Part shown: positions 4,949 to 57,858 of the stretch, in pieces
Position numbering within the stretch: position 1 is the first letter of the stretch
Layout of the letters: every line of letters starts with the position of its first letter
Assembly: GCA_964428955.1 (NCBI GenBank)
Contig: CAYSAD010000001.1
Coordinates: 19,561-83,560, forward strand
DNA length: 64,000 nt
From: an uncultured Candidatus Saccharibacteria bacterium
GTDB lineage: Bacteria; Patescibacteriota; Saccharimonadia; Saccharimonadales; Saccharimonadaceae
Direction: 5' to 3'
Translations under genes and position numbers: made by a program
The notes under the pieces: model-generated
Seen by the model: the letters and a program-made list of their open reading frames with translations, nothing else
The model's database searches: none
Told to the model about the DNA's origin: nothing

Positions 4949-7420
4949 TTAGACTTGAGGCGTTGTTTGCTCAATGTTTGCATCGGCAGCGATTTTATCC
5001 GCCTCAACTACCGAGCCAAGAATTGCCTCTACTTGTTCTTTACTGATCTCCACGGTACTACCTGCACCAGCCGTACCTTCGAGCATTTGCTTGGCAACGG
5101 TATTTTCGACCGCCCGCTGCACGACTCGGCGCATCGGCCGGGCGCCGAGTCTCGGATCATAACCTTTGTCTACTAGCAGTAATTTGGCATCGTCGCTGAC
5201 TGTAACGGTGACTTTCTGGTTGGCCAGGGTTTTATTGACGCCCGCCAAAATTAGATCGATGACTTGCAGTAATTCCGGCTTACCAAGCGGTGTAAAGGTA
5301 ATGATTTCATCAAAACGGTTCAAAAATTCCGGTCGGAACTGGCCGCTCGAAATCAACTCGTCGGTAAATTGCTGCTCGAATTGCTCCAGTTTGTAACCGC
5401 GCTCAATGTACTCGCGAATACGTTCTGCCCCGGCGTTGCTGGTAGCAATCACGATGGCGTCACGGAAACTGACGTCGCGGTTCTTTTCATCGCGCAGAAT
5501 ACCTTCATCGAGTAATTGCAACAATGTCGTTAAAACACTCGGGTGAGCTTTTTCAATCTCATCCAGCAGTACGACACTGAACGGCTGTTTCATCATCCGC
5601 GCTGTCAGACTGCTCGGGTCGTTCGCGCCATCCGCGATAAGCCGGGCTACATCCTCGCTACGGACGAATTCATTTAAGTCCAGTCGCACCATCCGATCTT
5701 CACCACCAAAGTAGACGTCCGCCAAGGCCTTGGCAAGCTCAGTCTTACCGACACCGGTCGGACCGAGGAACAGAAATGTACCGATTGGCCGATTCTGATT
5801 ACGTACACCAGCCCGCGCTCGGCGCAATGCATCACTAACGACTTGCACGGCCCTGGTTTGATTTATCATTCGTTCGTGAATCAACGATTCCAGATTCAAC
5901 AGTGTGGTTTTCTCTTGTTCGCCACTAGCAACACCAACTTTAATGTCCATCGTCTGCTCAATCGCCTGTTGAACTGAATTCATCGTGACGAGTCCATTTT
6001 CGCTATAACTGGCAGCTGATTCCAGCAGCTTTAAGGCCCGGCCCGGCATTGCTAAATCGTGAACATAACGCTCACTCAAATTGTAGGCTTCACCCAATGC
6101 CTGGTAGGTGTAGGTCACTTTGCGGTGAAATTCCGTCAGTATTAGTTGGTCTTGCATGACGGCAACAGTTTCGTCACGCGATGCCGGGGCAATAGAAATA
6201 CGGTTAAGTGCGTTTACTAACGCGCCGTTACGCTGCGAAATCTGCAAGAAGCGTTGTTCATCCATAGTTAAGATCATGCGCAAATTACCAGCCTCTAAAA
6301 TCGGCAGCAACACATTGGTTAAGTCGACCGATCCGACGGCTTCTTCGAAGAATAACTCAGCATTATCCAGACAAATGATGATGTTCTTTGCGCTATAGGC
6401 CTCGCCGAGTACCTGCATAACCAGCTGCTCCAATTCCCCACGACCAGGTGCAGCCGCAATGAGCGACGAAGCATCAAGCATAATGACTTGACGAAACTGT
6501 AAATTTACCGGCAGTTTATTTTTAGCATCGAGTAACTTCTCGGCAAAAGCGTGAACGATAGTCGTTTTACCAACGCCAGCTGGTCCAACGAGGGCTGCGT
6601 TCTGCCGACCACCACTTGTAAATGTATCGATCAGTTGAGTGAGGGCTGTGACATGGGCTTCCAAATCCACTGCCAGCATACCACCATGCCGCATTTGTTC
6701 GCTGATATTCTGACCAAAGCGCGCCAATAGCGGAATATAGCCAAACGAGAAATCACGAGCGATGCCACCGGTCATACGCGGCCCGGTATGCGCGTCAATC
6801 AATTTTCGAAGATGGTCTTGCCAACGGATACCGGTTTCAATATCACTGACGTCAAGATGCAACTGTGCGAGTAAGTTTTCATAACCAGCAAAACCCTGGA
6901 CTAGCGCGAGTACCATGACGCCAGCTGTCATTTCAGACAACTCCAGTCGCTCCATAATATCAGCCGATCGCTGCCATAGCTTTTCTGTATCGGCCGCCTG
7001 GTCTGAAGCGATGTCTTGCAAAAAATTGGCCGTCAATCCAAACCGGACGGCAAAAAATTGGCCGCCGAAACTACGTCCGATCGCGGCCGCGACATCTTTT
7101 GGCGTTGGATTCGCACCAAGCTGGGCTATGATATCAGCCGCCAGAACATCATTTACCGACGCTGGGTTCTTATTCGGTGCTAGCCGCTTCAATTCACCCG
7201 TATACCATAGACTGAACATAGCTGGTAAGCTTGCTAGACTCATCACGAACCAACCAATTGACAGTTGACTGATAATCAATCCGATGCCACCAATTACCAG
7301 CAACCAGGTCGTTAATTTTAGGATTACATGAAGCGCCCCGCCAAACGTGACGGCCATGCGCGCCTTTTGCACTCGTTCGTGATGCGGATTAAATATTAGT
7401 TCCATACGATTGGTGTCCAA
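4949..7420 (-). CDS. Membrane-anchored double-AAA+ ATPase of the Clp/Hsp100 family (atypical)
   Basis: Two Walker A motifs (GPAGVGKTT, GPTGVGKTELAKALA). D2 Walker B is VVLLDEIEKAHP, with GARPMRR sensor-2. Two N-terminal hydrophobic helices. The ORF-track start 7420 is TTG; the first ATG is at 7405. Confidence 0.9.
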   Translation of the reverse strand: MDTNRMELIFNPHHERVQKARMAVTFGGALHVILKLTTWLLVIGGIGLIISQLSIGWFVMSLASLPAMFSLWYTGELKRLAPNKNPASVNDVLAADIIAQLGANPTPKDVAAAIGRSFGGQFFAVRFGLTANFLQDIASDQAADTEKLWQRSADIMERLELSEMTAGVMVLALVQGFAGYENLLAQLHLDVSDIETGIRWQDHLRKLIDAHTGPRMTGGIARDFSFGYIPLLARFGQNISEQMRHGGMLAVDLEAHVTALTQLIDTFTSGGRQNAALVGPAGVGKTTIVHAFAEKLLDAKNKLPVNLQFRQVIMLDASSLIAAAPGRGELEQLVMQVLGEAYSAKNIIICLDNAELFFEEAVGSVDLTNVLLPILEAGNLRMILTMDEQRFLQISQRNGALVNALNRISIAPASRDETVAVMQDQLILTEFHRKVTYTYQALGEAYNLSERYVHDLAMPGRALKLLESAASYSENGLVTMNSVQQAIEQTMDIKVGVASGEQEKTTLLNLESLIHERMINQTRAVQVVSDALRRARAGVRNQNRPIGTFLFLGPTGVGKTELAKALADVYFGGEDRMVRLDLNEFVRSEDVARLIADGANDPSSLTARMMKQPFSVVLLDEIEKAHPSVLTTLLQLLDEGILRDEKNRDVSFRDAIVIATSNAGAERIREYIERGYKLEQFEQQFTDELISSGQFRPEFLNRFDEIITFTPLGKPELLQVIDLILAGVNKTLANQKVTVTVSDDAKLLLVDKGYDPRLGARPMRRVVQRAVENTVAKQMLEGTAGAGSTVEISKEQVEAILGSVVEADKIAADANIEQTTPQV

Positions 7421-51062: not shown

Positions 51063-52295
51063 TTACATATACCGCGTACTGCCGAACGGAATCTTGGCGC
51101 GCATGATGTGGTCAGTCGACAAAGTATCGGCCGAGTGAATAGCCCGCGCACCGTAGCGTTGGTTGATAGTATCAACCGCGCCAGTCATAGCCTGGTCACG
51201 AGCTAGTTCATCGCCAAACAGATTCAGCTGCGAATCGTCTGGCTGACTCAGCCCATAACAGGTAACACCAATTTCTTTGACCGTCTCTGGTGCGTGCGCA
51301 AACAACTGCCGGACTTGCTCGTAAATTGCTTGGTTACTAAAAAACGGCAAGCTGGCCATGTGGCGAGCATGCCAATAACCACGGTCGTAGCTGCGGGCAT
51401 GCACCTGGACACCGCGCGCTACCAAGCCCTGAGAACGAACCTTAGCGCCAACTTCCTCACATAAATGATGTAATCGCTGTAAAACTTCGGGGCGTGATAG
51501 TTTATATGACTCCAGTACATATTGCCGGCCGGCACTTTTTAAGGTGAAATCGCGCTTATCGACTTCCCAGCCACGCAACCGCTGGTACCACTCGTCACCA
51601 CAGACGCTCTTGAACACTATCTTACGTAATGTCACCGGATCGGCATCTAAAAACTCCAGTGGCGTGAAAATGCCAACGGCATTCAACCGCGCATGGAGAT
51701 GCTGGGCTATGCCGGTCAGGTCCTCCAGTTCGAGCCCGGCGTAGACAGCCCGTAGATTGTCGGCTGAAATGACGTCGAGACCATCGGGTTTATGCAGGCC
51801 GGCGGCGGTTTTGGCTAAGAAACGGTTCGGCCCGATGCCGACGTTGCAAATCATGGCCCGTCCGATCTCATCCCGCAGACGCTGTTTGATTTCACAACCA
51901 ACGTCAACGAGATTCCGACGAGCAATCTGATGGGTCGTTTCTGAAAAATCAATCACGCCCTCGTCGATACTTTTCATCCTCACATGGGCCGAATAGTCAT
52001 TCATGATCCGCATAAGCTGATGGTAGACATAGCGATACTTCGGTGGATCACTCTCCAGCCCGATCAAATCCGGACATAAAAGCTTGGCATCCTTAAGGCG
52101 CATACCAAGCTTAACGCCCATCGCTTTCGCCTCGTAACTGGCCGTTACAATCGTTGTGTGTTCGGTGCGACGATTGACGATAGCCACCGGGCGGCCGCGC
52201 AGCAGCGGCCGGGCTTGCTGCTCGACGGTGGCAAAGCAGCTGTTGAGATCGATATGCATGATAACTGGCGATACCTGGTTATAATCGCTTCTCAT
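51063..52295 (-). CDS. dinB: Y-family DNA polymerase (DinB/Pol IV-like)
   Basis: 410 aa. HIDLNSCFATVEQ (catalytic Asp), SYEAKAMGVK, SIDEGVID. Confidence 0.9.
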   Translation of the reverse strand: MRSDYNQVSPVIMHIDLNSCFATVEQQARPLLRGRPVAIVNRRTEHTTIVTASYEAKAMGVKLGMRLKDAKLLCPDLIGLESDPPKYRYVYHQLMRIMNDYSAHVRMKSIDEGVIDFSETTHQIARRNLVDVGCEIKQRLRDEIGRAMICNVGIGPNRFLAKTAAGLHKPDGLDVISADNLRAVYAGLELEDLTGIAQHLHARLNAVGIFTPLEFLDADPVTLRKIVFKSVCGDEWYQRLRGWEVDKRDFTLKSAGRQYVLESYKLSRPEVLQRLHHLCEEVGAKVRSQGLVARGVQVHARSYDRGYWHARHMASLPFFSNQAIYEQVRQLFAHAPETVKEIGVTCYGLSQPDDSQLNLFGDELARDQAMTGAVDTINQRYGARAIHSADTLSTDHIMRAKIPFGSTRYM

Positions 52296-52555
52296 AAGTG
52301 GTCGCCTTCGCGCGTCAAATGCCAGGTCAGCCGCTCGCTGTCGAATTCCAAGCGATAGTCCGCCTGCGAATCGGTCACATCGAATATATGCATCGTTCGC
52401 TGGCCGCTCGTCGTCGGGTGGCGCAAACCTATCTCGTTAATTATGATTTCACGCCCATTAGTGCGTCGAAATTTTATCGGTTTACAGGGATTTAGGCCGA
52501 TGCCGAACGTTGCTACTACGTCAACCCGTTCGTTCAAAAAAAGTTCATCATCCAT
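52292..52555 (-). CDS. Hypothetical 87-aa protein translationally coupled (ATGA) to the Y-family polymerase
   Basis: ATG 52555 with AGAGGAAG SD. Its TGA overlaps the dinB ATG. No family recognised. Confidence 0.6.
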   Translation of the reverse strand: MDDELFLNERVDVVATFGIGLNPCKPIKFRRTNGREIIINEIGLRHPTTSGQRTMHIFDVTDSQADYRLEFDSERLTWHLTREGDHL

Positions 52556-52727: not shown

Positions 52728-53759
52728 TTATTTACCAATGGAAGAGTTGAGATTGGAAATTGGGCTGTAGTTATATACCGCTACTGTTTGCTTATAGCAA
52801 ACATCACCGGCCGCGTGCGGTTTAGTCGTTAGGTCACTCGTGTAGCTGCTCACTGCGGTACCCTGCAGTTCCACGCCGCCGTCACCGTAATTATCGTAGC
52901 CGCCGCCGTAGTAGTCACCGCGTGCACTATTCTCGTGTTTGTAGGTAACGCACAATTGGTAATAGTAGTTCTTGTTAGTTGAGTATGAGCTATAATTCGG
53001 AACTTCGCTGATAGCTGGGTTCTCTTTCTGGTAGCGTACTTTACCACTATCAATCAAAGTTTGCACATCGCTCGACTGTGATGATAAGTCAGTGAGACTA
53101 CCAGGCAGTTGGTTGTGTTGTCTCGTATAGCTTTGAATCGAGTAGGTAAGATTCGACAAGTTATCTTCAACCATCTTATCGTCGCGGCCTATAATGGCGC
53201 TTACCAGCGGCCCAAAAATACCGAAGCCGATCAGTACGACCGCCAGTACTAGCATCGTCAAGCCGTAGATTAGTGACATACGGCTAGTTTTGAACGGATA
53301 CAAAACCCGTAACAATAACAAACCGTATAGAACGGCGGCGGCAAATGTCGTAATCAGACCGACGGTTTTCTCGGCGCTCGTGGTATCGACTAACATGTTC
53401 AAACCAATGAAAACGGCACCGATAAGAGTACCGATAGCAATTAGCGCGTAGAGTACGGAGTGCAGTACCATCACCACTGTCGCCGCACCAGCTTTTTTCA
53501 ACGGTTCATGGCGACGATAAAAGAAATCGGTCAGGTAAGCCACCGGCAACAATACGATGTTGGCTGCCAATGCGTATGGCAACGAGGCTGCGTCAGTCGA
53601 CGAGCCCTTGTCGACCATGAAGAACATTAGTACTACCGTAAACAGCCAAATAAAGGCGATGATGAACCAGCCCCAAAAGGCATAACTGAGCCATTGCAAA
53701 ACCACCACACCAGCCGACGAACGGGTGGCAGTAGGGCGCTTATCATTGTTCTCGTGCAT
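52728..53759 (-). CDS. Membrane protein: N-terminal polytopic domain plus extracytoplasmic C-terminal domain, hypothetical
   Basis: 343 aa, about 6 TM helices, then a Y, N, S and G-rich soluble region with 2 Cys. TAGGAGAT SD. Confidence 0.65.
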   Translation of the reverse strand: MHENNDKRPTATRSSAGVVVLQWLSYAFWGWFIIAFIWLFTVVLMFFMVDKGSSTDAASLPYALAANIVLLPVAYLTDFFYRRHEPLKKAGAATVVMVLHSVLYALIAIGTLIGAVFIGLNMLVDTTSAEKTVGLITTFAAAVLYGLLLLRVLYPFKTSRMSLIYGLTMLVLAVVLIGFGIFGPLVSAIIGRDDKMVEDNLSNLTYSIQSYTRQHNQLPGSLTDLSSQSSDVQTLIDSGKVRYQKENPAISEVPNYSSYSTNKNYYYQLCVTYKHENSARGDYYGGGYDNYGDGGVELQGTAVSSYTSDLTTKPHAAGDVCYKQTVAVYNYSPISNLNSSIGK

Positions 53760-54010: not shown

Positions 54011-54087
54011 TGGTAGCAGCGACTGGAATTGAACCAGTGACCTTAGGCTTATGAGTCCTACGCTCTAACCAACTGAGCTACGCTGCC
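54011..54087 (-). tRNA. tRNA-Met (CAT), elongator type
   Basis: The D-arm GTAGCTCAGTTGGTTAGAGC and GGTCAC variable/T junction resemble E. coli elongator tRNA-Met. Anticodon loop CTCATAA, G1-U72, encoded CCA. Confidence 0.85.
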
Positions 54088-54416: not shown

Positions 54417-54561
54417 ATGGTTTGCTTTCTATTTATGTTTAGTTTGTTATGTACTTATTTAAGCATAAAAGTTTTAAAAAAGCAATAGTAAAATCATAAA
54501 TCCGTGGTAATTTCGCAGTGCTTATGCTATAAATAACAGTGAAGGTAGGCAAAAAATAAAC

Positions 54562-55287
54562 ATGGACACGCTTCACGCATTTATCATTATCGTCGCCTGT
54601 GGACTCATCCACGCCAGCTTCCAGCTCAGCATTAGCGTACTGACATTACTTAGTGGCCATGCCATCGGAGCACGTGCCAGTCATGCTCGCGTACTTCGCC
54701 TGAGTGGTAGCTTCGTAGCAGGTGTAGCCGTCGCGACGACACTTATTACCTCGACCAGTGCACTAGTGCTGCTGTCGCTGTTCGGTTCATCCACTGTTCC
54801 ACTTTTGGCCTGGACCACAGCTTGCGGTCTTATGATTGGGCTGGGAGTTTCCATCTGGAGTTTTTACTATCGCCGCGAAACTGGTACAAGCTTATGGCTG
54901 CCGCGAAGCATCGCTGGCTATCTGACACAGCGCTCCAAAGCCACCAAACACAGCGGGGAAGCCTTCGGTTTAGGCCTCACTAGTGTTTTTAGTGAATTAC
55001 TCTTTATCATCGTCCCAACCATCGTGGCGTCGCTGACGCTCATTCAACTTTCACCCACTCTGCAGCTCACTGGCGTGTTGACCTATACTGCCATCTCCCT
55101 GTCGTCATTGTTTATCGTCGCTAGCCTCATTGGAGCGGGTCATAAACTCAGCACTATCCAAAAATGGCGTGAAACCAATAAATCGTTCCTGCAATTCGTC
55201 GGCGGTGCCGGACTACTGATACTAGGATTCTACATCTATGTCGAAAACGTGACGGCCGCATTCGCCTATTCTGGAGGAATCTACTAA
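54562..55287 (+). CDS. Six-TM membrane protein with paired ACGL motifs, hypothetical
   Basis: 241 aa. VACGLIHAS in TM1 and TACGLMIGL in TM3. First gene of a tight 3-gene operon. Confidence 0.65.
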   Translation: MDTLHAFIIIVACGLIHASFQLSISVLTLLSGHAIGARASHARVLRLSGSFVAGVAVATTLITSTSALVLLSLFGSSTVPLLAWTTACGLMIGLGVSIWSFYYRRETGTSLWLPRSIAGYLTQRSKATKHSGEAFGLGLTSVFSELLFIIVPTIVASLTLIQLSPTLQLTGVLTYTAISLSSLFIVASLIGAGHKLSTIQKWRETNKSFLQFVGGAGLLILGFYIYVENVTAAFAYSGGIY

Positions 55288-55288
55288 T

Positions 55289-55570
55289 ATGCCCGCCGTT
55301 GACATCATCAAGCACAGCGGGCAACGACCTAGCGAATCGTTCGATCAAGCTAAGTTGCATCAGAGTGTGCTGGCCGCCTGTCTGAGTGTGCGAACACCGG
55401 AAGGTGAAGCTGAACATATCGCCAAGCATGTCAGCCGAGCCGTCGGTCAATGGTGTCAGCAAAAACCGGAGGTCACCTCGCACGATATCCGCCGCGTAGC
55501 CGCCGACGCCCTGAACGCCTTTCACCCCGAAGCGTCTTACTTATATAAACAACACCGGGTAATCATCTAA
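55289..55570 (+). CDS. Stand-alone ATP-cone domain protein
   Basis: 93 aa. VDIIKHSGQRPSESFDQAKLHQSVLAA matches the ATP-cone start pattern (v.KrdG..e.Fd..Ki). GGAGGA SD. Starts 1 nt after the upstream stop. Confidence 0.65.
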   Translation: MPAVDIIKHSGQRPSESFDQAKLHQSVLAACLSVRTPEGEAEHIAKHVSRAVGQWCQQKPEVTSHDIRRVAADALNAFHPEASYLYKQHRVII

Positions 55571-55582
55571 GGAGCCGTCGGT

Positions 55583-56956
55583 ATGCCGAAAAAAACTCAT
55601 TTCGATTATGACCTCATTATTATCGGTAGCGGGGCCGGTGGCAGTGCCGCGGCGACCATCGCTGCCAGAAACGGCAAGAAGGTAGCTATTATCGAAGCCG
55701 ATACGTTTGGTGGCGATTCACCGAACTGGAGTGACGTCCCTACTAAAGCCCTGTTGCATGCCGCCCAAATTTATGACGAAGCCAAACATGCTGCTCGTTT
55801 TGGCCTCCGCTCCAGTACGCTCGGTTATAACTACCCCAGCCTGCGTACCTGGAAAGAATTGGCTGTCAAACGCACTGGTGCGGCCGGCAATCGCAAATAT
55901 TACGAAGACCAAGGCATTACCACCTTCCATGGCGTGGCCCATTTCCTAAGTCCCAACGAAATCAGTGTCAACCGCCGTCACCTCTCAGCCCGTCATTTCC
56001 TGGTTGCTACCGGCTCACATTGGGTCGCGCCAAATATCCAAGGCTTGAAACACATCGACTATCTGACACCGCGGACTATCCTTGAAGCTATCCGGCCACC
56101 AAAAAGTCTCTACATTATCGGCGCAGGTACGATTGGCGTAGAGATTGCTCAGCTGATGGCAACATTCGGTACGAAAGTTTATTTGGCTGAGATTGCCGGC
56201 CGCATCTTACCTCGAGAAGACGAAGAGGTCGGCCTGTTACTGGAGCGGCTCTTGAAGGAGCAAAAAGGTGTTACGAGTCTGACACAAACGCGAACACTGG
56301 CAATCGTAAAAGACGGCCCAAGTAAACGAGTCAGCTTTACGCGCGGTGGTATCGAACGTTCGGTGCGTGTTGACGAAATCCTGGTCGCGACAGGTCGCCA
56401 ACCGACCGTCGACATCGGTCTGGAAAATGCGACGGTCACCTACTCGCCTAAAGGTATCGAGGTTAACGATTATCTACAGACTAGCGCCCGTCACATCTTC
56501 GCTGCTGGTGACGTGCTCGGCCATGATTCCCACACCCACACAGCTTTTTTGGAAAGTCGCACCGTCGCACAAAATCTAAAAGGTAAAACAAAAATCAAAC
56601 CCGACTATACTGCCACGCCGCGTCTCAGCTTTACCTATCCGAGTATTGCGTCGGTGGGTTTGTCTGAAGATGACTGCATTAAGCGCGATCTTGCCATCAA
56701 CAAAGCGCTCGTCCCGCTGAATATGATTGCCCGCAGCAACACCAGTGATTTCCGCGACGGCTTTTGTAAACTTATCACTGATAAAAGAGGTGTCATTCTC
56801 GGTGGCACGATCGTCGCACCACACGCTGGCGAAATGATTCACGAAATAGCTCTGGCGGTCAAATACAGCATGAGCGCCACTCAGCTGGCTGCCACGCCAC
56901 ACGCTTTCTTAAGTTGGAGTGAAGTAGTTAAGCTGGCAGCGAGTAAATTAGCGTAG
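55583..56956 (+). CDS. Class I pyridine nucleotide-disulfide oxidoreductase homologue (Lpd/GR-like) lacking the redox-active CxxxxC
   Basis: 457 aa. FAD GxGxxG (IIIGSGAGGSAAA) and NAD GxGxxG (IIGAGTIGVE) are present. The site GGxCxNxGCxPSK reads GGDSPNWSDVPTK. Confidence 0.88.
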   Translation: MPKKTHFDYDLIIIGSGAGGSAAATIAARNGKKVAIIEADTFGGDSPNWSDVPTKALLHAAQIYDEAKHAARFGLRSSTLGYNYPSLRTWKELAVKRTGAAGNRKYYEDQGITTFHGVAHFLSPNEISVNRRHLSARHFLVATGSHWVAPNIQGLKHIDYLTPRTILEAIRPPKSLYIIGAGTIGVEIAQLMATFGTKVYLAEIAGRILPREDEEVGLLLERLLKEQKGVTSLTQTRTLAIVKDGPSKRVSFTRGGIERSVRVDEILVATGRQPTVDIGLENATVTYSPKGIEVNDYLQTSARHIFAAGDVLGHDSHTHTAFLESRTVAQNLKGKTKIKPDYTATPRLSFTYPSIASVGLSEDDCIKRDLAINKALVPLNMIARSNTSDFRDGFCKLITDKRGVILGGTIVAPHAGEMIHEIALAVKYSMSATQLAATPHAFLSWSEVVKLAASKLA

Positions 56957-57168: not shown

Positions 57169-57246
57169 TGGTTGCGGGGGTAGGATTTGAACCTACGACC
57201 TTGTGGTTATGAGCCACACGAGCTGACCAGACTGCTCCACCCCGCG
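57169..57246 (-). tRNA. tRNA-fMet (CAT), initiator type
   Basis: C1xA72 mismatch at the top of the acceptor stem (CGCGGGG / CCCCGCA). Anticodon loop CTCATAA, but only two G-C pairs at the bottom of the anticodon stem. Encoded CCA. Confidence 0.85.
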
Positions 57247-57277: not shown

Positions 57278-57721
57278 CTATTGCAAGCTCCTGGAGTTGC
57301 CACCAAATATGAAATTCGTCCACTGTTCGAAGTTACTCGGCTTAATAGAGCGTACCGGCTGGGCAGCATCGGCTTTTTGATCAGATACTGTGGCGACTTT
57401 GGAATTCGGTGGTAAAATCAATACTTTCTCTCCAGGACTGGCCAGTCCCAAACGATCGCGCACGGCCAGCTCCTGATACTCGGCACTTTTGTAGTAACGC
57501 TGTTCGTACGTCAGATTTTGTGCCTCAAGTTCCAGCAGTTTTTCTTCACGTTTCTTGCTATCGACTTGCTTCTGCAAGTCATAGTTGCGCTGCATGACAC
57601 CGATTGAACCCCAGGCCCAACTAGCAGCGATAAAAAGCGCCACTATAATGACGGCATTATTAAGTGTCATGTAATCGTGACGGATATGATACCAGTTGCG
57701 ACGGATGTTTATTTTTTTCAT
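57278..57721 (-). CDS. FtsB/DivIC-like septum formation initiator
   Basis: 147 aa: one TM helix, then a leucine-zipper-like coiled coil and the motif AVRDRLGLASPGEKVL typical of the family. Confidence 0.7.
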   Translation of the reverse strand: MKKINIRRNWYHIRHDYMTLNNAVIIVALFIAASWAWGSIGVMQRNYDLQKQVDSKKREEKLLELEAQNLTYEQRYYKSAEYQELAVRDRLGLASPGEKVLILPPNSKVATVSDQKADAAQPVRSIKPSNFEQWTNFIFGGNSRSLQ

Positions 57722-57782: not shown

Positions 57783-57858
57783 GGGGGCGTAGCTCAGTGG
57801 TTAGAGCAGTTGGCTCATAACTAATTGGTCGCTGGTTCAAGTCCAGCCGCCCCCACCA
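57783..57858 (+). tRNA. tRNA-Ile2 type (CAT, lysidine substrate)
   Basis: D-arm TAGCTCAGTGGTTAGAGCAG and TTGGTCGCTGGTTCAAGTCCAGC are identical to E. coli tRNA-Ile2 as I recall it. Anticodon loop CTCATAA, encoded CCA. Confidence 0.8.

Follow-up and report, generated by a model that had tools for sequence, protein, structure and literature searches.

The window, a 64,000-nucleotide stretch of DNA from an uncultured Candidatus Saccharibacteria bacterium, carries three adjacent genes for a membrane protein, an ATP-cone and a flavoprotein of the disulfide reductase type. The locus raises the questions of whether these genes form a single conserved unit, and whether such a unit could carry electrons from NAD(P)H to cysteines in the membrane, as the first-pass annotation had speculated, or is built for some other chemistry.

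A three-gene operon and its distribution

The features of the locus are as follows.

54525-54534, plus strand: candidate extended -10 element (TGcTATAAAT), read directly in the 145-nt AT-rich stretch that precedes the operon
54562-55287, plus strand: gene 1, membrane protein, ORF of 241 aa
55273-55278, plus strand: Shine-Dalgarno sequence of gene 2 (GGAGGA), in the 3' end of gene 1, 10 nt before the gene 2 ATG
55289-55570, plus strand: gene 2, ATP-cone protein, ORF of 93 aa
55569-55574, plus strand: Shine-Dalgarno sequence of gene 3 (AAGGAG), overlapping the gene 2 stop codon, 8 nt before the gene 3 ATG
55583-56956, plus strand: gene 3, flavoprotein, ORF of 457 aa

Coordinates and ribosome-binding sites were verified, and the tight packing described in the first-pass annotation is correct, the sequence itself showing intergenic gaps of 1 nt and 12 nt. 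The operon is translationally coupled. A consensus scan for a two-hexamer promoter upstream of it found none.

The order and strand of the trio are the same in 83 of 84 related loci, the exception being a contig that ends early. Over 86 loci the gap between genes 1 and 2 ranges from -8 to +8 nt (median 1), and that between genes 2 and 3 is 7-22 nt (median 12) in all but two, where it is enlarged. The membrane protein is encoded in 350 GTDB species genomes, its closest GTDB relative being 63% identical. The trio is also retained in distant loci where the membrane protein is about 25-35% identical and the neighbouring genes are entirely different, and individual flanking genes are common to just 0-45 of 92 loci. 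The synteny expected among relatives was thus found in the distant clades as well as the close ones. No gene fusions were found among the longer members of the gene 1 family, whose long ORFs are mis-started or frameshifted. The three genes are one co-conserved operon and a conserved module of the Saccharibacteria. The three-gene system has not previously been characterised, and we found no description of it in the literature on Saccharibacteria with the ATP-cone, stand-alone ATP-cones and the flavoprotein.

Apparent orthologues of the three genes, SEML1_0736, 0737 and 0738, were covered by a published Tn-seq study of Southlakia epibionticum (PMC10633639); they share gene sizes and a tRNA-Met / septum-initiator flank with the trio in the window. 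Each showed a 3-5-fold depletion between T0 and T2, in contrast to flat values for the neighbours listed (0732, 0734 and 0742), and the authors class all three genes as non-essential (PMC10633639). The depletion is modest, and in the two upstream genes it may reflect polarity. Similar depletion ratios are seen in other non-essential S. epibionticum genes.

The flavoprotein and the ATP-cone

The gene 3 product contains Pyr_redox_2 (PF07992, 175 bits) and Pyr_redox_dim (PF02852, 80 bits), in agreement with its earlier description as a full-length Lpd/GR-like flavoprotein, and at the canonical GGTCxNxGCxPSK motif it reads GGDSPNWSDVPTKAL. Its GGDSPNWSDVP aligns with GGTCVNIGCVP of MerA (5x1y) and GGVCLNVGCIP of Lpd (2eq6), so that the first redox cysteine position is occupied by Ser46 (83 of 84 orthologues) and the second by Asp51 (Asp or Glu in 84 of 84). 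The replacement motif is GG[DE]SPNW[SG]D[VI]P, and its columns are almost invariant among the 84 orthologues (S46 in 83, N48 in 84, W49 in 78 and D51 in 81), as are H440, F442, W445 and E447, with 79-80 each. Near the C-terminus, TPHAFLSWSE aligns with T-V-H-P-H-P-T-L-S-E of Lpd, placing Phe442 (79 of 81) at the catalytic histidine and retaining the glutamate; a C-terminal cysteine pair of the MerA type is absent. Both redox cysteines and the catalytic histidine are replaced in all 84 orthologues. The term "Cys-less" used in the first-pass annotation therefore holds for the redox site but not for the whole protein, which has two cysteines, C365 (81 of 84 orthologues) and C395, neither of them at that site.

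Distant clades have the same exchange of Cys for Ser/Asn and of Cys for Asp/Glu, the acidic residue being found in every one examined. The cofactor sites are kept. In the FAD motif all orthologues have G15, G17 and G20, and 83 of 84 have E38; in the NAD motif G180, G182 and G185 occur in 75-82 of the 84 sequences, the GD motif is likewise retained, and position 203 carries an acid (Glu or Asp in 82 of 84), as is usual in enzymes that use NADH. Of the three proteins, the flavoprotein is conserved best, with identities of 65-82%. MerA is its best single match in both the PDB and NCBIfam, although no NCBIfam equivalog cut-off is reached: MerA scores 339.5 bits (cut-off 454), Lpd 328.5 (409), GR 243 (480) and STH 213 (465). 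From its sequence, we assign the protein as a class-I flavoprotein-disulfide-reductase homologue without the redox disulfide. The near invariance of the site that replaces the disulfide suggests a functioning active site and not a remnant, and the enzyme looks active but not thiol-based.

Relatives of Lpd that are missing one or both redox cysteines are known, namely Irc15p of Saccharomyces cerevisiae, LpdA (Rv3303c) of Mycobacterium tuberculosis and the soluble transhydrogenase STH, the latter two also without the catalytic histidine (PMC6296175). Irc15p and LpdA are NAD(P)H-dependent quinone reductases, Irc15p using artificial acceptors too, STH is an NADH/NADP+ transhydrogenase, and none of the three reduces disulfides (PMC6296175). 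They share with the gene 3 product the class-I flavoprotein-disulfide-reductase fold and the sites for FAD and NAD(P)H, but they are not its orthologues, since the NCBIfam scores of the STH and LpdA types lie below those of MerA and Lpd and far under the cut-offs. Unlike them, gene 3 has lost both cysteines as well as the histidine, has an almost invariant S-P-N-W-x-D and H-A-F-L-S-W-S-E site in their place, and is tied to an operon that also encodes an ATP-cone and a membrane protein; no such partners have been described for the other three.

The gene 2 product scores 24.4 bits (E 4.2e-5) against the ATP-cone model PF03477, slightly under the cut-off of 25.8, and the model matches 27 of 27 aligned relatives at E <= 0.01, with a best value of 1.2e-11. 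In its AlphaFold2 model (pLDDT 82.7), two short strands are combined with four helices, at residues 20-33, 38-58, 64-78 and 80-88. When this model was compared with the PDB by Foldseek, ranks 1-26 were all ATP-cones of NrdR, NrdA, NrdB or NrdD (probability 0.93-1.00, TM 0.56-0.78). The earlier identification of the middle gene as an isolated ATP-cone is well supported by these matches, and by the profile matches of its relatives and its own predicted structure the protein is a genuine stand-alone ATP-cone. It has the beta-hairpin, the four helices and the N-terminal K-R-x-G...E-x-F...K pattern of the cones in NrdR and the ribonucleotide reductases. It differs from them in being a free-standing protein of 93 aa with neither zinc ribbon nor catalytic domain, and in having a flavoprotein and a membrane protein, rather than nucleotide reduction, for company.

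Conserved gene 2 residues align with the VVKRSG..EPF..K stretch of NrdR (K8 in 84 of 84 orthologues, G11 in 81, R13 in 82, E16 in 83, F18 in 79 and K22 in 83); position 9 is Arg in 65 of 84 and His in the window protein. This conservation of the nucleotide-contact residues makes nucleotide gating plausible in this clade. A distant sister clade keeps the trio with a gene 2 counterpart of 65-81 aa that is without the nucleotide-binding hairpin.

The membrane protein

The AlphaFold2 model of the gene 1 product (pLDDT 80) contains six long helices. Both of the ACGL motifs pointed out previously are present, VACGLIHAS at residues 11-19 and TACGLMIGL at residues 86-94, their cysteines being C13 of helix 1 and C88 of helix 3, but they are not conserved as a pair. 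One orthologue out of 85, that of this genome, has Cys at position 13, where 79 have Ala; at position 88, Cys occurs in 77 of the 85 close orthologues versus 10 of 107 family representatives. The protein has 1938 homologues (282 representatives at 50% identity), and the features conserved family-wide are instead a YYRRxxGTxLWLPR loop, a QxWRxxNKxF segment and E145, a glutamate in the middle of the membrane in TM4. The basic loops are the most conserved features family-wide and lie on the side rich in Lys and Arg, and from the positive-inside rule we infer that the three conserved basic loops are cytoplasmic. In its sequence features, the protein looks like a docking partner. A two-haem cytochrome b-like arrangement using H17, H33, H41 and H194 was ruled out, these residues being kept in the close clade only and present in 51%, 49%, 22% and 30%, respectively, of the 107 representatives.

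Pfam searches with the protein and its close relatives gave no hit. Distant family members gave colinear sub-threshold matches to DsbD_2 (2.8e-4), DsbD_TM (3.2e-6, one member) and SfLAP (9e-4); Pfam matches of family members beyond these sub-threshold ones to the LysE clan were hydrophobic noise. By hhalign, the family profile matched two CcdA-like comparison proteins, P0437 and P0436, which are themselves just below the Pfam cut-offs, with 92-98% probability over 212-226 columns. The resemblance to CcdA/DsbD noted in the first-pass annotation therefore probably reflects distant homology. The gene 1 product shares six helices and a length of about 230 aa with the CcdA/DsbD transmembrane domains (Pfam DsbD_TM and DsbD_2, LysE clan), and the match to P0437 and P0436 is colinear over the full length. 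These two carry NPC in TM1 and (L/I)PC-x-GG in TM4, and in P0437, whose TM4 motif is ELPCTGGP, the glutamate of ELPC corresponds to the conserved E145. The S. epibionticum orthologue of gene 1 is labelled "DsbD 2 domain-containing" in Table S2 of the Tn-seq study, and its AFDB neighbours, at 0.93, have UreH-like or cytochrome c biogenesis TM/DsbD names, though these neighbours may be orthologues (PMC10633639).

The cysteines do not follow this homology. The TM1 Cys of CcdA-like proteins aligns near L22 (Leu in 83 of 85), and their TM4 Cys falls on F148 (Phe in 84 of 85). C13 and C88 occupy other places, in TM1 and TM3 respectively. With Leu and Phe at the redox positions, the gene 1 product should be incapable of thiol-disulfide electron transfer, and we regard it as a probable cysteine-independent distant relative of the CcdA/DsbD-type (LysE-clan) transmembrane domains. 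Three further searches were negative: Foldseek of the model against the PDB gave a best E of 0.32 and TM of 0.41, to half of an MFS transporter, with no CcdA match; profile searches found no relatives of solved structure; and comparison of the N-terminal and C-terminal halves by hhalign gave a probability of 1.4% for a 3+3 internal repeat. An ancestral thiol-based trio beside P0437 or P0436 was ruled out, as neither has such partners nearby: one lies in an archaeal informational-gene region and the other in a copper/cytochrome b cluster.

Possible functions of the module

Our preferred reading, which we hold tentatively, is a membrane-docked, ATP-cone-associated NADH flavoprotein that does non-thiol chemistry. 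The three products would come together on the cytoplasmic side of the membrane, where the gene 1 product, as a member of the CcdA/DsbD-LysE superfamily with no redox cysteines, would offer its basic loops and the buried E145. The ATP-cone would serve as an adaptor and, in this clade, is probably an adenine-nucleotide-responsive regulator. The gene 3 product, presumably a dimeric FAD enzyme, would take hydride from NADH, and its lack of a redox disulfide and catalytic histidine suggests that the flavin may hand reducing equivalents directly to a non-disulfide acceptor, with the conserved carboxylate of Asp51 occupying the former place of the flavin-proximal cysteine. Candidate acceptors would be quinone-like compounds, metals or other small oxidants, and the membrane partner might deliver, remove or bind the acceptor.

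At the level of gene content the trio may be compared with the mer (MerT/MerP/MerA) and rclABC operons, in which a class-I flavoprotein of the reductase fold is accompanied by a small accessory component and by a substrate-handling protein of the inner membrane. Those systems differ from the trio in being Cys-dependent in every component and in having periplasmic small proteins rather than ATP-cones, and their membrane proteins belong to families other than that of gene 1. The RclA NCBIfam model gave 172 bits with gene 3, against a cut-off of 740.

Several observations count against the preferred reading. Because the residues surrounding the flavin differ between the two clades, except for [S/N]46, N48, [D/E]51 and H440, a single universal substrate is not obvious. 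A respiratory quinone-reductase role is weakened by the annotation of S. epibionticum, which contains no quinol oxidase and no NADH dehydrogenase. The single soil Saccharibacterium for which a complete NDH-2/cytochrome bo3 chain has been described is without the "Lpd" gene (PMC6031116). An unlikely further reading is that of an undescribed, widespread Saccharibacteria module in which NADH is used, under adenylate control, to reduce and move a substance (a quinone or metal ion, for example) that these epibionts have to acquire from their host or protect themselves against within it. An Lpd-type flavoprotein and a CcdA/DsbD-type domain would then have been re-tooled to cysteine-free carboxylate chemistry, with Asp51 beside the flavin and Glu145 in the membrane, and joined by a free-standing ATP-cone.

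The gene 1 product could alternatively be an exporter or carrier of the LysE superfamily that is opened and closed in response to redox and energy state by a regulatory flavoprotein sensing NADH/NAD+ and by the ATP-cone sensing ATP/dATP/ADP. The arrangement would be comparable with the RCK/KTN or CBS domains on other transporters, and the flavoprotein would then be a pseudo-enzyme. This possibility, which we consider somewhat unlikely, would account for the loss of the catalytic cysteine pair and histidine, and it agrees with the transporter-rich superfamily of gene 1, its mid-membrane glutamate and the dispensability of the trio in culture. ATP-cones are, in general, allosteric nucleotide sensors that act through oligomerisation. 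A mere sensor is nevertheless difficult to reconcile with the flavoprotein being the most conserved of the three proteins and its replacement site almost invariant; a 457-aa FAD protein would be a costly sensor in a genome of about 1 Mb, and one clade keeps the trio though the cone has lost its nucleotide-binding hairpin.

We think it improbable that there is no complex and that gene 3 encodes a soluble diaphorase, NADH oxidase or transhydrogenase-like flavoprotein, the upstream genes being co-transcribed without functional coupling. The tryptophan of SPNW does recur in E. coli STH, in the motif GCTHWGT. STH and LpdA have also been described as enzymes without a membrane partner, and Irc15p binds microtubules, not the membrane (PMC6296175). 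Against this, the NCBIfam STH model scores below MerA and Lpd, the order, strand and near-zero gaps are kept in 86 loci, of which just two have an enlarged gap, and in clades with unrelated neighbours, and the Tn-seq trend is shared by all three genes.

The nucleotide-gated relay of the first-pass annotation, in which electrons would pass from NAD(P)H through the flavoprotein to C13 and C88 as in CcdA/DsbD, is hardly tenable. The distant homology of gene 1 to the CcdA/DsbD-type domains, the occurrence of both ACGL motifs in this genome and the retention of C88 in most of the close clade are in its favour, but the relay through C13 and C88 is refuted by their conservation counts and by the alignment of the CcdA cysteines with L22 and F148. 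A dithiol/disulfide relay is impossible with a single thiol, and C88 in TM3 would lie toward the outer face, far from the cytoplasmic partners. Since the membrane cysteine pair is not conserved, the thiol relay fails, and any redox chemistry of the trio should be non-thiol. The ordinary annotation of gene 3, as a true dihydrolipoyl dehydrogenase (the E3 of a 2-oxoacid dehydrogenase or of glycine cleavage) or as a mercuric or glutathione-type reductase, deserves next to no credence: although MerA and Lpd are what it matches best in NCBIfam and the PDB, and "dihydrolipoyl dehydrogenase" is annotated in saccharibacterial genomes (PMC6031116), a role as disulfide or Hg(II) reductase is refuted by the absence of the defining residues from all 84 orthologues, its scores fall far short of all the equivalog cut-offs, and Irc15p, without the same Cys, has no disulfide reductase activity (PMC6296175).

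An "orphan dihydrolipoyl dehydrogenase" of unclear function was noted earlier in Saccharibacteria genomes (PMC6031116). The orphan "Lpd" cannot be a lipoamide dehydrogenase and is part of a three-part unit with a membrane component, and the trio carries a new, conserved non-thiol active site. The unit extends the uses of the ATP-cone beyond ribonucleotide reduction, and its membrane protein would be an example of a CcdA/DsbD-like domain that functions without cysteines. As the apparent orthologues are non-essential in the genetically tractable S. epibionticum, it is feasible to make clean deletion mutants and to test the system biochemically. The genomes of Saccharibacteria, about 1 Mb in size, encode very little redox metabolism, and given such small, redox-poor genomes, the retention of the flavoprotein at 65-82% identity, always with the same two partners, suggests that it likely does something important.

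Layout and conservation of the operon

The three plus-strand open reading frames that the first-pass annotation had assigned to a tight operon lie exactly where it placed them, and the good Shine-Dalgarno sites that it had credited to the second and third genes can both be read from the sequence and are well placed. The operon and its surroundings in the window are as follows.

51063-52295, minus strand: DinB/IMS-type Y-family DNA polymerase gene
52292-52555, minus strand: 87-aa ORF without annotation, preceding and overlapping the polymerase gene
52728-53759, minus strand: 343-aa membrane protein; several TM helices at the N-terminus, C-terminal region rich in Tyr, Gly, Asn and Ser
54011-54087, minus strand: tRNA-Met (CAT), flanking the operon
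54525-54534, plus strand: candidate extended -10 element, TGcTATAAAT
54562-55287, plus strand: gene 1, 241-aa ORF, membrane protein
55273-55278, plus strand: Shine-Dalgarno site GGAGGA
55289-55570, plus strand: gene 2, 93-aa ORF, ATP-cone protein
55569-55574, plus strand: Shine-Dalgarno site AAGGAG
55583-56956, plus strand: gene 3, 457-aa ORF, flavoprotein
57169-57246, minus strand: tRNA-Met (CAT), flanking the operon
57278-57721, minus strand: DivIC-like gene, adjoining the operon
57783-57858, plus strand: tRNA-Met (CAT), beyond the DivIC-like gene

A single nucleotide separates the TAA stop codon of gene 1 (55285-55287) from the gene 2 ATG, and 12 nt separate the gene 2 stop codon (55568-55570) from the gene 3 ATG. 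The G+C content of the operon is that of the surrounding sequence. The candidate -10 element lies within an AT-rich upstream gap of 145 nt, in which a promoter scan found no full promoter match. The three tRNA-Met genes bracket the operon together with the adjacent DivIC-like gene.

Gene 1 has 1938 database homologues, of which all those with a taxon name are labelled Saccharibacteria, and a relative is encoded in 350 GTDB species genomes. The first-pass annotation had raised the question of whether the trio is syntenic across Saccharibacteria; it is, with all three proteins found in the same order and on the same strand in 84 fetched loci, the sole exception being a contig that ends early. 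Among 86 loci the gap between genes 1 and 2 is -8 to +8 nt (median 1), and that between genes 2 and 3 is 7-22 nt (median 12) in all except two, which have inserts of 141 and 1156 nt. The larger insert is occupied by a 341-aa ORF (6013-7038 of locus L018, from CP011211, Saccharibacteria GW2011_GWC2_44_17). An exhaustive profile search gave 282 representatives of the gene 1 family at 50% identity. Seven distant representatives or their relatives were looked up; in each, a small ORF and the beginning of a flavoprotein-like gene come next. Three of these loci lie on contigs too short for the whole flavoprotein gene.

It is the trio itself that is conserved and not its neighbourhood. The window's own neighbours (the DinB-type polymerase, DivIC and others) are common to at most 45 of 92 loci, and two distant trio loci, L091 and L092, have wholly different ones (aldolase, L25, GrpE, HrcA and adenylate kinase). 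In 30-32 of the 92 loci the polymerase gene and the 87-aa ORF are both present upstream of the trio, on the strand opposite to it, at 70-78% identity. The 343-aa membrane protein has homologues close to the trio in just 8 of the 92, so it is not part of the unit.

Properties of the three proteins

Gene 3 encodes the most conserved of the three proteins (65-82% identity). It contains Pyr_redox_2 and dimerisation domains and best matches MerA and Lpd, scoring below every NCBIfam equivalog cut-off. Alignment with MerA (5x1y) and Lpd (2eq6) places Ser46 and Asp51 at the two redox-cysteine positions and Phe442 at that of the catalytic histidine, with the glutamate kept. Across 84 orthologues the redox site reads GG[DE]SPNW[SG]D[VI]PTKAL, with S46 in 83, N48 in 84, W49 in 78 and D51 in 81 (Glu in three more); H440, F442, W445 and E447 of the C-terminal TPHAFLSWSE are each present in 79-80. 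Distant sequences read GGESPNWGDIP, GGASLYAENMP, GGTSLNYSDLP or GGANLNTRD[IV]P, so that family-wide the first cysteine is replaced by Ser or Asn and the second by Asp or Glu, with the cofactor motifs retained. In gene 3 both the FAD and the NAD motif are intact, and 82 of 84 orthologues have Glu or Asp at position 203, which by analogy with Lpd and GR would point to use of NADH and not NADPH. These sequences suggest a working FAD/NADH protein in which a new, selected site, with a carboxylate next to the flavin, has taken the place of the thiol machinery.

The gene 2 product scores just below the cut-off of the Pfam ATP-cone model (24.4 versus 25.8 bits). We nevertheless conclude, as the first-pass annotation had proposed, that it is a genuine free-standing ATP-cone, because all 27 aligned relatives match the model (best E-value 1.2e-11), its AlphaFold2 model (pLDDT 82.7) retrieves only ATP-cones, of NrdR, NrdA, NrdB and NrdD, at Foldseek ranks 1-26, and the hairpin and first helix retain the residue pattern for nucleotide contact (K8 in 84 of 84 orthologues, G11 in 81, R13 in 82, E16 in 83, F18 in 79 and K22 in 83). 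At position 9 most orthologues have Arg and the window protein has His. As a genuine ATP-cone, the protein probably binds a nucleotide.

A distant clade of lower G+C content (loci L085, L089, L091 and L092; 35-42% G+C) keeps the trio; in L091 and L092 the genes overlap by 4 nt. The flavoprotein motif of the clade is GGANLNTRD[IV]P, but none can be recognised in L085. The small protein, of 65-81 aa, consists of the C-terminal helices only (...AYVYxNRDKII), without the nucleotide-binding hairpin, and is encoded at these positions:

L085, 1412-1609: short-cone ORF
L089, 1181-1420: short-cone ORF
L091, 6753-6992: short-cone ORF
L092, 6708-6953: short-cone ORF

Since this protein lacks the hairpin, the trio can persist without nucleotide sensing, and the role that the small protein shares across clades is likely to be that of an adaptor.

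Neither Pfam nor NCBIfam has a family matching gene 1, a profile search of the PDB gave no hits, and the AlphaFold2 model of the protein (pLDDT 80) had no significant PDB neighbour. Distant members give colinear, sub-threshold Pfam matches to DsbD_2, DsbD_TM and SfLAP, all of the LysE clan. In hhalign the whole length of the family profile matches two CcdA-like proteins, P0436 and P0437, with 92-98% probability; both fall just short of the Pfam cut-offs themselves. P0437 combines NPC in TM1 with ELPCTGGP in TM4 and also has a thioredoxin-like CPHC domain. Independently, Wang et al. (2023; PMC10633639, Table S2) labelled the apparent Southlakia epibionticum orthologue "DsbD 2 domain-containing", with structural neighbours named as UreH-like or cytochrome c biogenesis TM domains. 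The resemblance to CcdA/DsbD pointed out in the first-pass annotation therefore probably reflects ancestry but does not extend to the cysteines. The paired ACGL motifs are present in the window protein, yet C13 is Cys in 1 of 85 orthologues (this genome only; Ala in 79), and C88, found in 77 of 85 close orthologues, is Cys in only 10 of 107 family representatives. In the alignment with the CcdA-like proteins, L22 lies near the TM1 cysteine, F148 (a Phe in 84 of the 85 orthologues) coincides with the TM4 cysteine, and E145 with the Glu that precedes it.

Histidines of gene 1 that are invariant in the close clade fade across the wider family. Conserved family-wide are G54, the loop residues Y102/R104/T109/L111/W112/P114/R115, F135/L137/G138, E145 in the fourth helix, and Q200/R203/K207/F209. 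Lys/Arg clusters lie in loops 33-47, 103-131 and 194-208, which by the positive-inside rule would be cytoplasmic; the most conserved surface of gene 1 would therefore face the two soluble partners.

The first-pass annotation's "Cys-less" flavoprotein has indeed lost the redox disulfide, although it is not literally free of cysteine, C365 being kept in the dimerisation domain. In the close Saccharibacteria clade each of the three proteins has exactly one highly conserved cysteine, and all three cysteines are lost in the distant clade:

54823-54825, plus strand: codon of gene 1 C88 (77/85)
55379-55381, plus strand: codon of gene 2 C31 (80/84)
56675-56677, plus strand: codon of gene 3 C365 (81/84)

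NrdR likewise has a cysteine at the cone position, so that of the ATP-cone may be structural.

The apparent trio of Southlakia epibionticum

In S. epibionticum ML1 (PMC10633639, Tables S1 and S2), SEML1_0736 (744 bp, hypothetical protein), SEML1_0737 (288 bp, ATP-cone) and SEML1_0738 (1377 bp, NAD(P)/FAD oxidoreductase, PF07992 and PF02852) are followed by tRNA-Met (minus), a septum formation initiator (minus) and tRNA-Met (plus), as in the window. The whole layout of tRNA-Met, trio, tRNA-Met, septum initiator and tRNA-Met spans SEML1_0733 to 0741. On the basis of this gene layout, SEML1_0736-0738 are the apparent orthologues of the trio. All three were called non-essential by Tn-seq at all time points (PMC10633639).

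Normalised Tn-seq reads of the trio genes (PMC10633639)
SEML1_0736: T0 2084, T1 1921, T2 698
SEML1_0737: T0 303, T1 340, T2 90
SEML1_0738: T0 3653, T1 2090, T2 756

Reads of the listed neighbours 0732, 0734 and 0742 stayed level. The 3-5-fold drop shared by the three genes is consistent with a single functional unit that contributes mildly to fitness; drops of this size are also seen among other non-essential genes, and for SEML1_0736 and 0737 polarity could explain it.

Possible function

Thiol-based chemistry is excluded at all three proteins, and haem-based transmembrane transfer lacks conserved ligands, which leaves the reading of an NADH-reducible flavoprotein. The closest biochemical precedents are Irc15p, LpdA and STH, each of which lacks at least one redox cysteine and does not reduce disulfides; Irc15p and LpdA reduce quinones with NAD(P)H, Irc15p also artificial acceptors, and STH transfers electrons between NADH and NADP+ (PMC6296175). 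Given these precedents and the failure of the thiol and haem routes, we tentatively favour an NADH:acceptor oxidoreductase that is docked at the membrane, works without thiols and has its acceptor handled by the membrane partner. NADH would reduce the flavoprotein, in which the disulfide side of the flavin has a re-designed site; the flavoprotein would be tied to a small adaptor or regulator and to a membrane protein from a family of carriers of small solutes and electrons. The ATP-cone would, in this clade, couple activity or assembly to adenylate state. No quinol oxidase or NADH dehydrogenase is annotated in the S. epibionticum genome, and SEML1_0225 is a quinone-dependent dihydroorotate dehydrogenase with a Tn-seq growth-defect call (PMC10633639, Table S1), a combination that may be relevant to the trio's acceptor. 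An orphan dihydrolipoyl dehydrogenase was noted in Saccharibacteria genomes by Starr et al. (PMC6031116); the aerobic T. rhizospherense, with its NDH-2 and cytochrome bo3, lacks this "Lpd" gene.

The main rival, in which the flavoprotein and the cone serve as sensors that gate a transporter of LysE type, is in our judgement unlikely. Still less probable is a soluble gene 3 enzyme with no functional link to its neighbours, its likelihood being lowered by the synteny of the trio. The thiol relay of the first-pass annotation, resting on membrane cysteines that the family does not conserve, is effectively excluded, and so is a genuine Lpd, MerA or GR function for gene 3, the least credible reading of all.

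Each part of the trio belongs to a known superfamily, and cysteine-deficient relatives of Lpd were already known. The literature searched describes neither the trio as a system nor its combination of the specific S-P-N-W-x-D / H-A-F-L-S-W-S-E site, a free-standing ATP-cone outside nucleotide reduction and a cysteine-free CcdA/DsbD-like partner. The genes are dispensable in culture.
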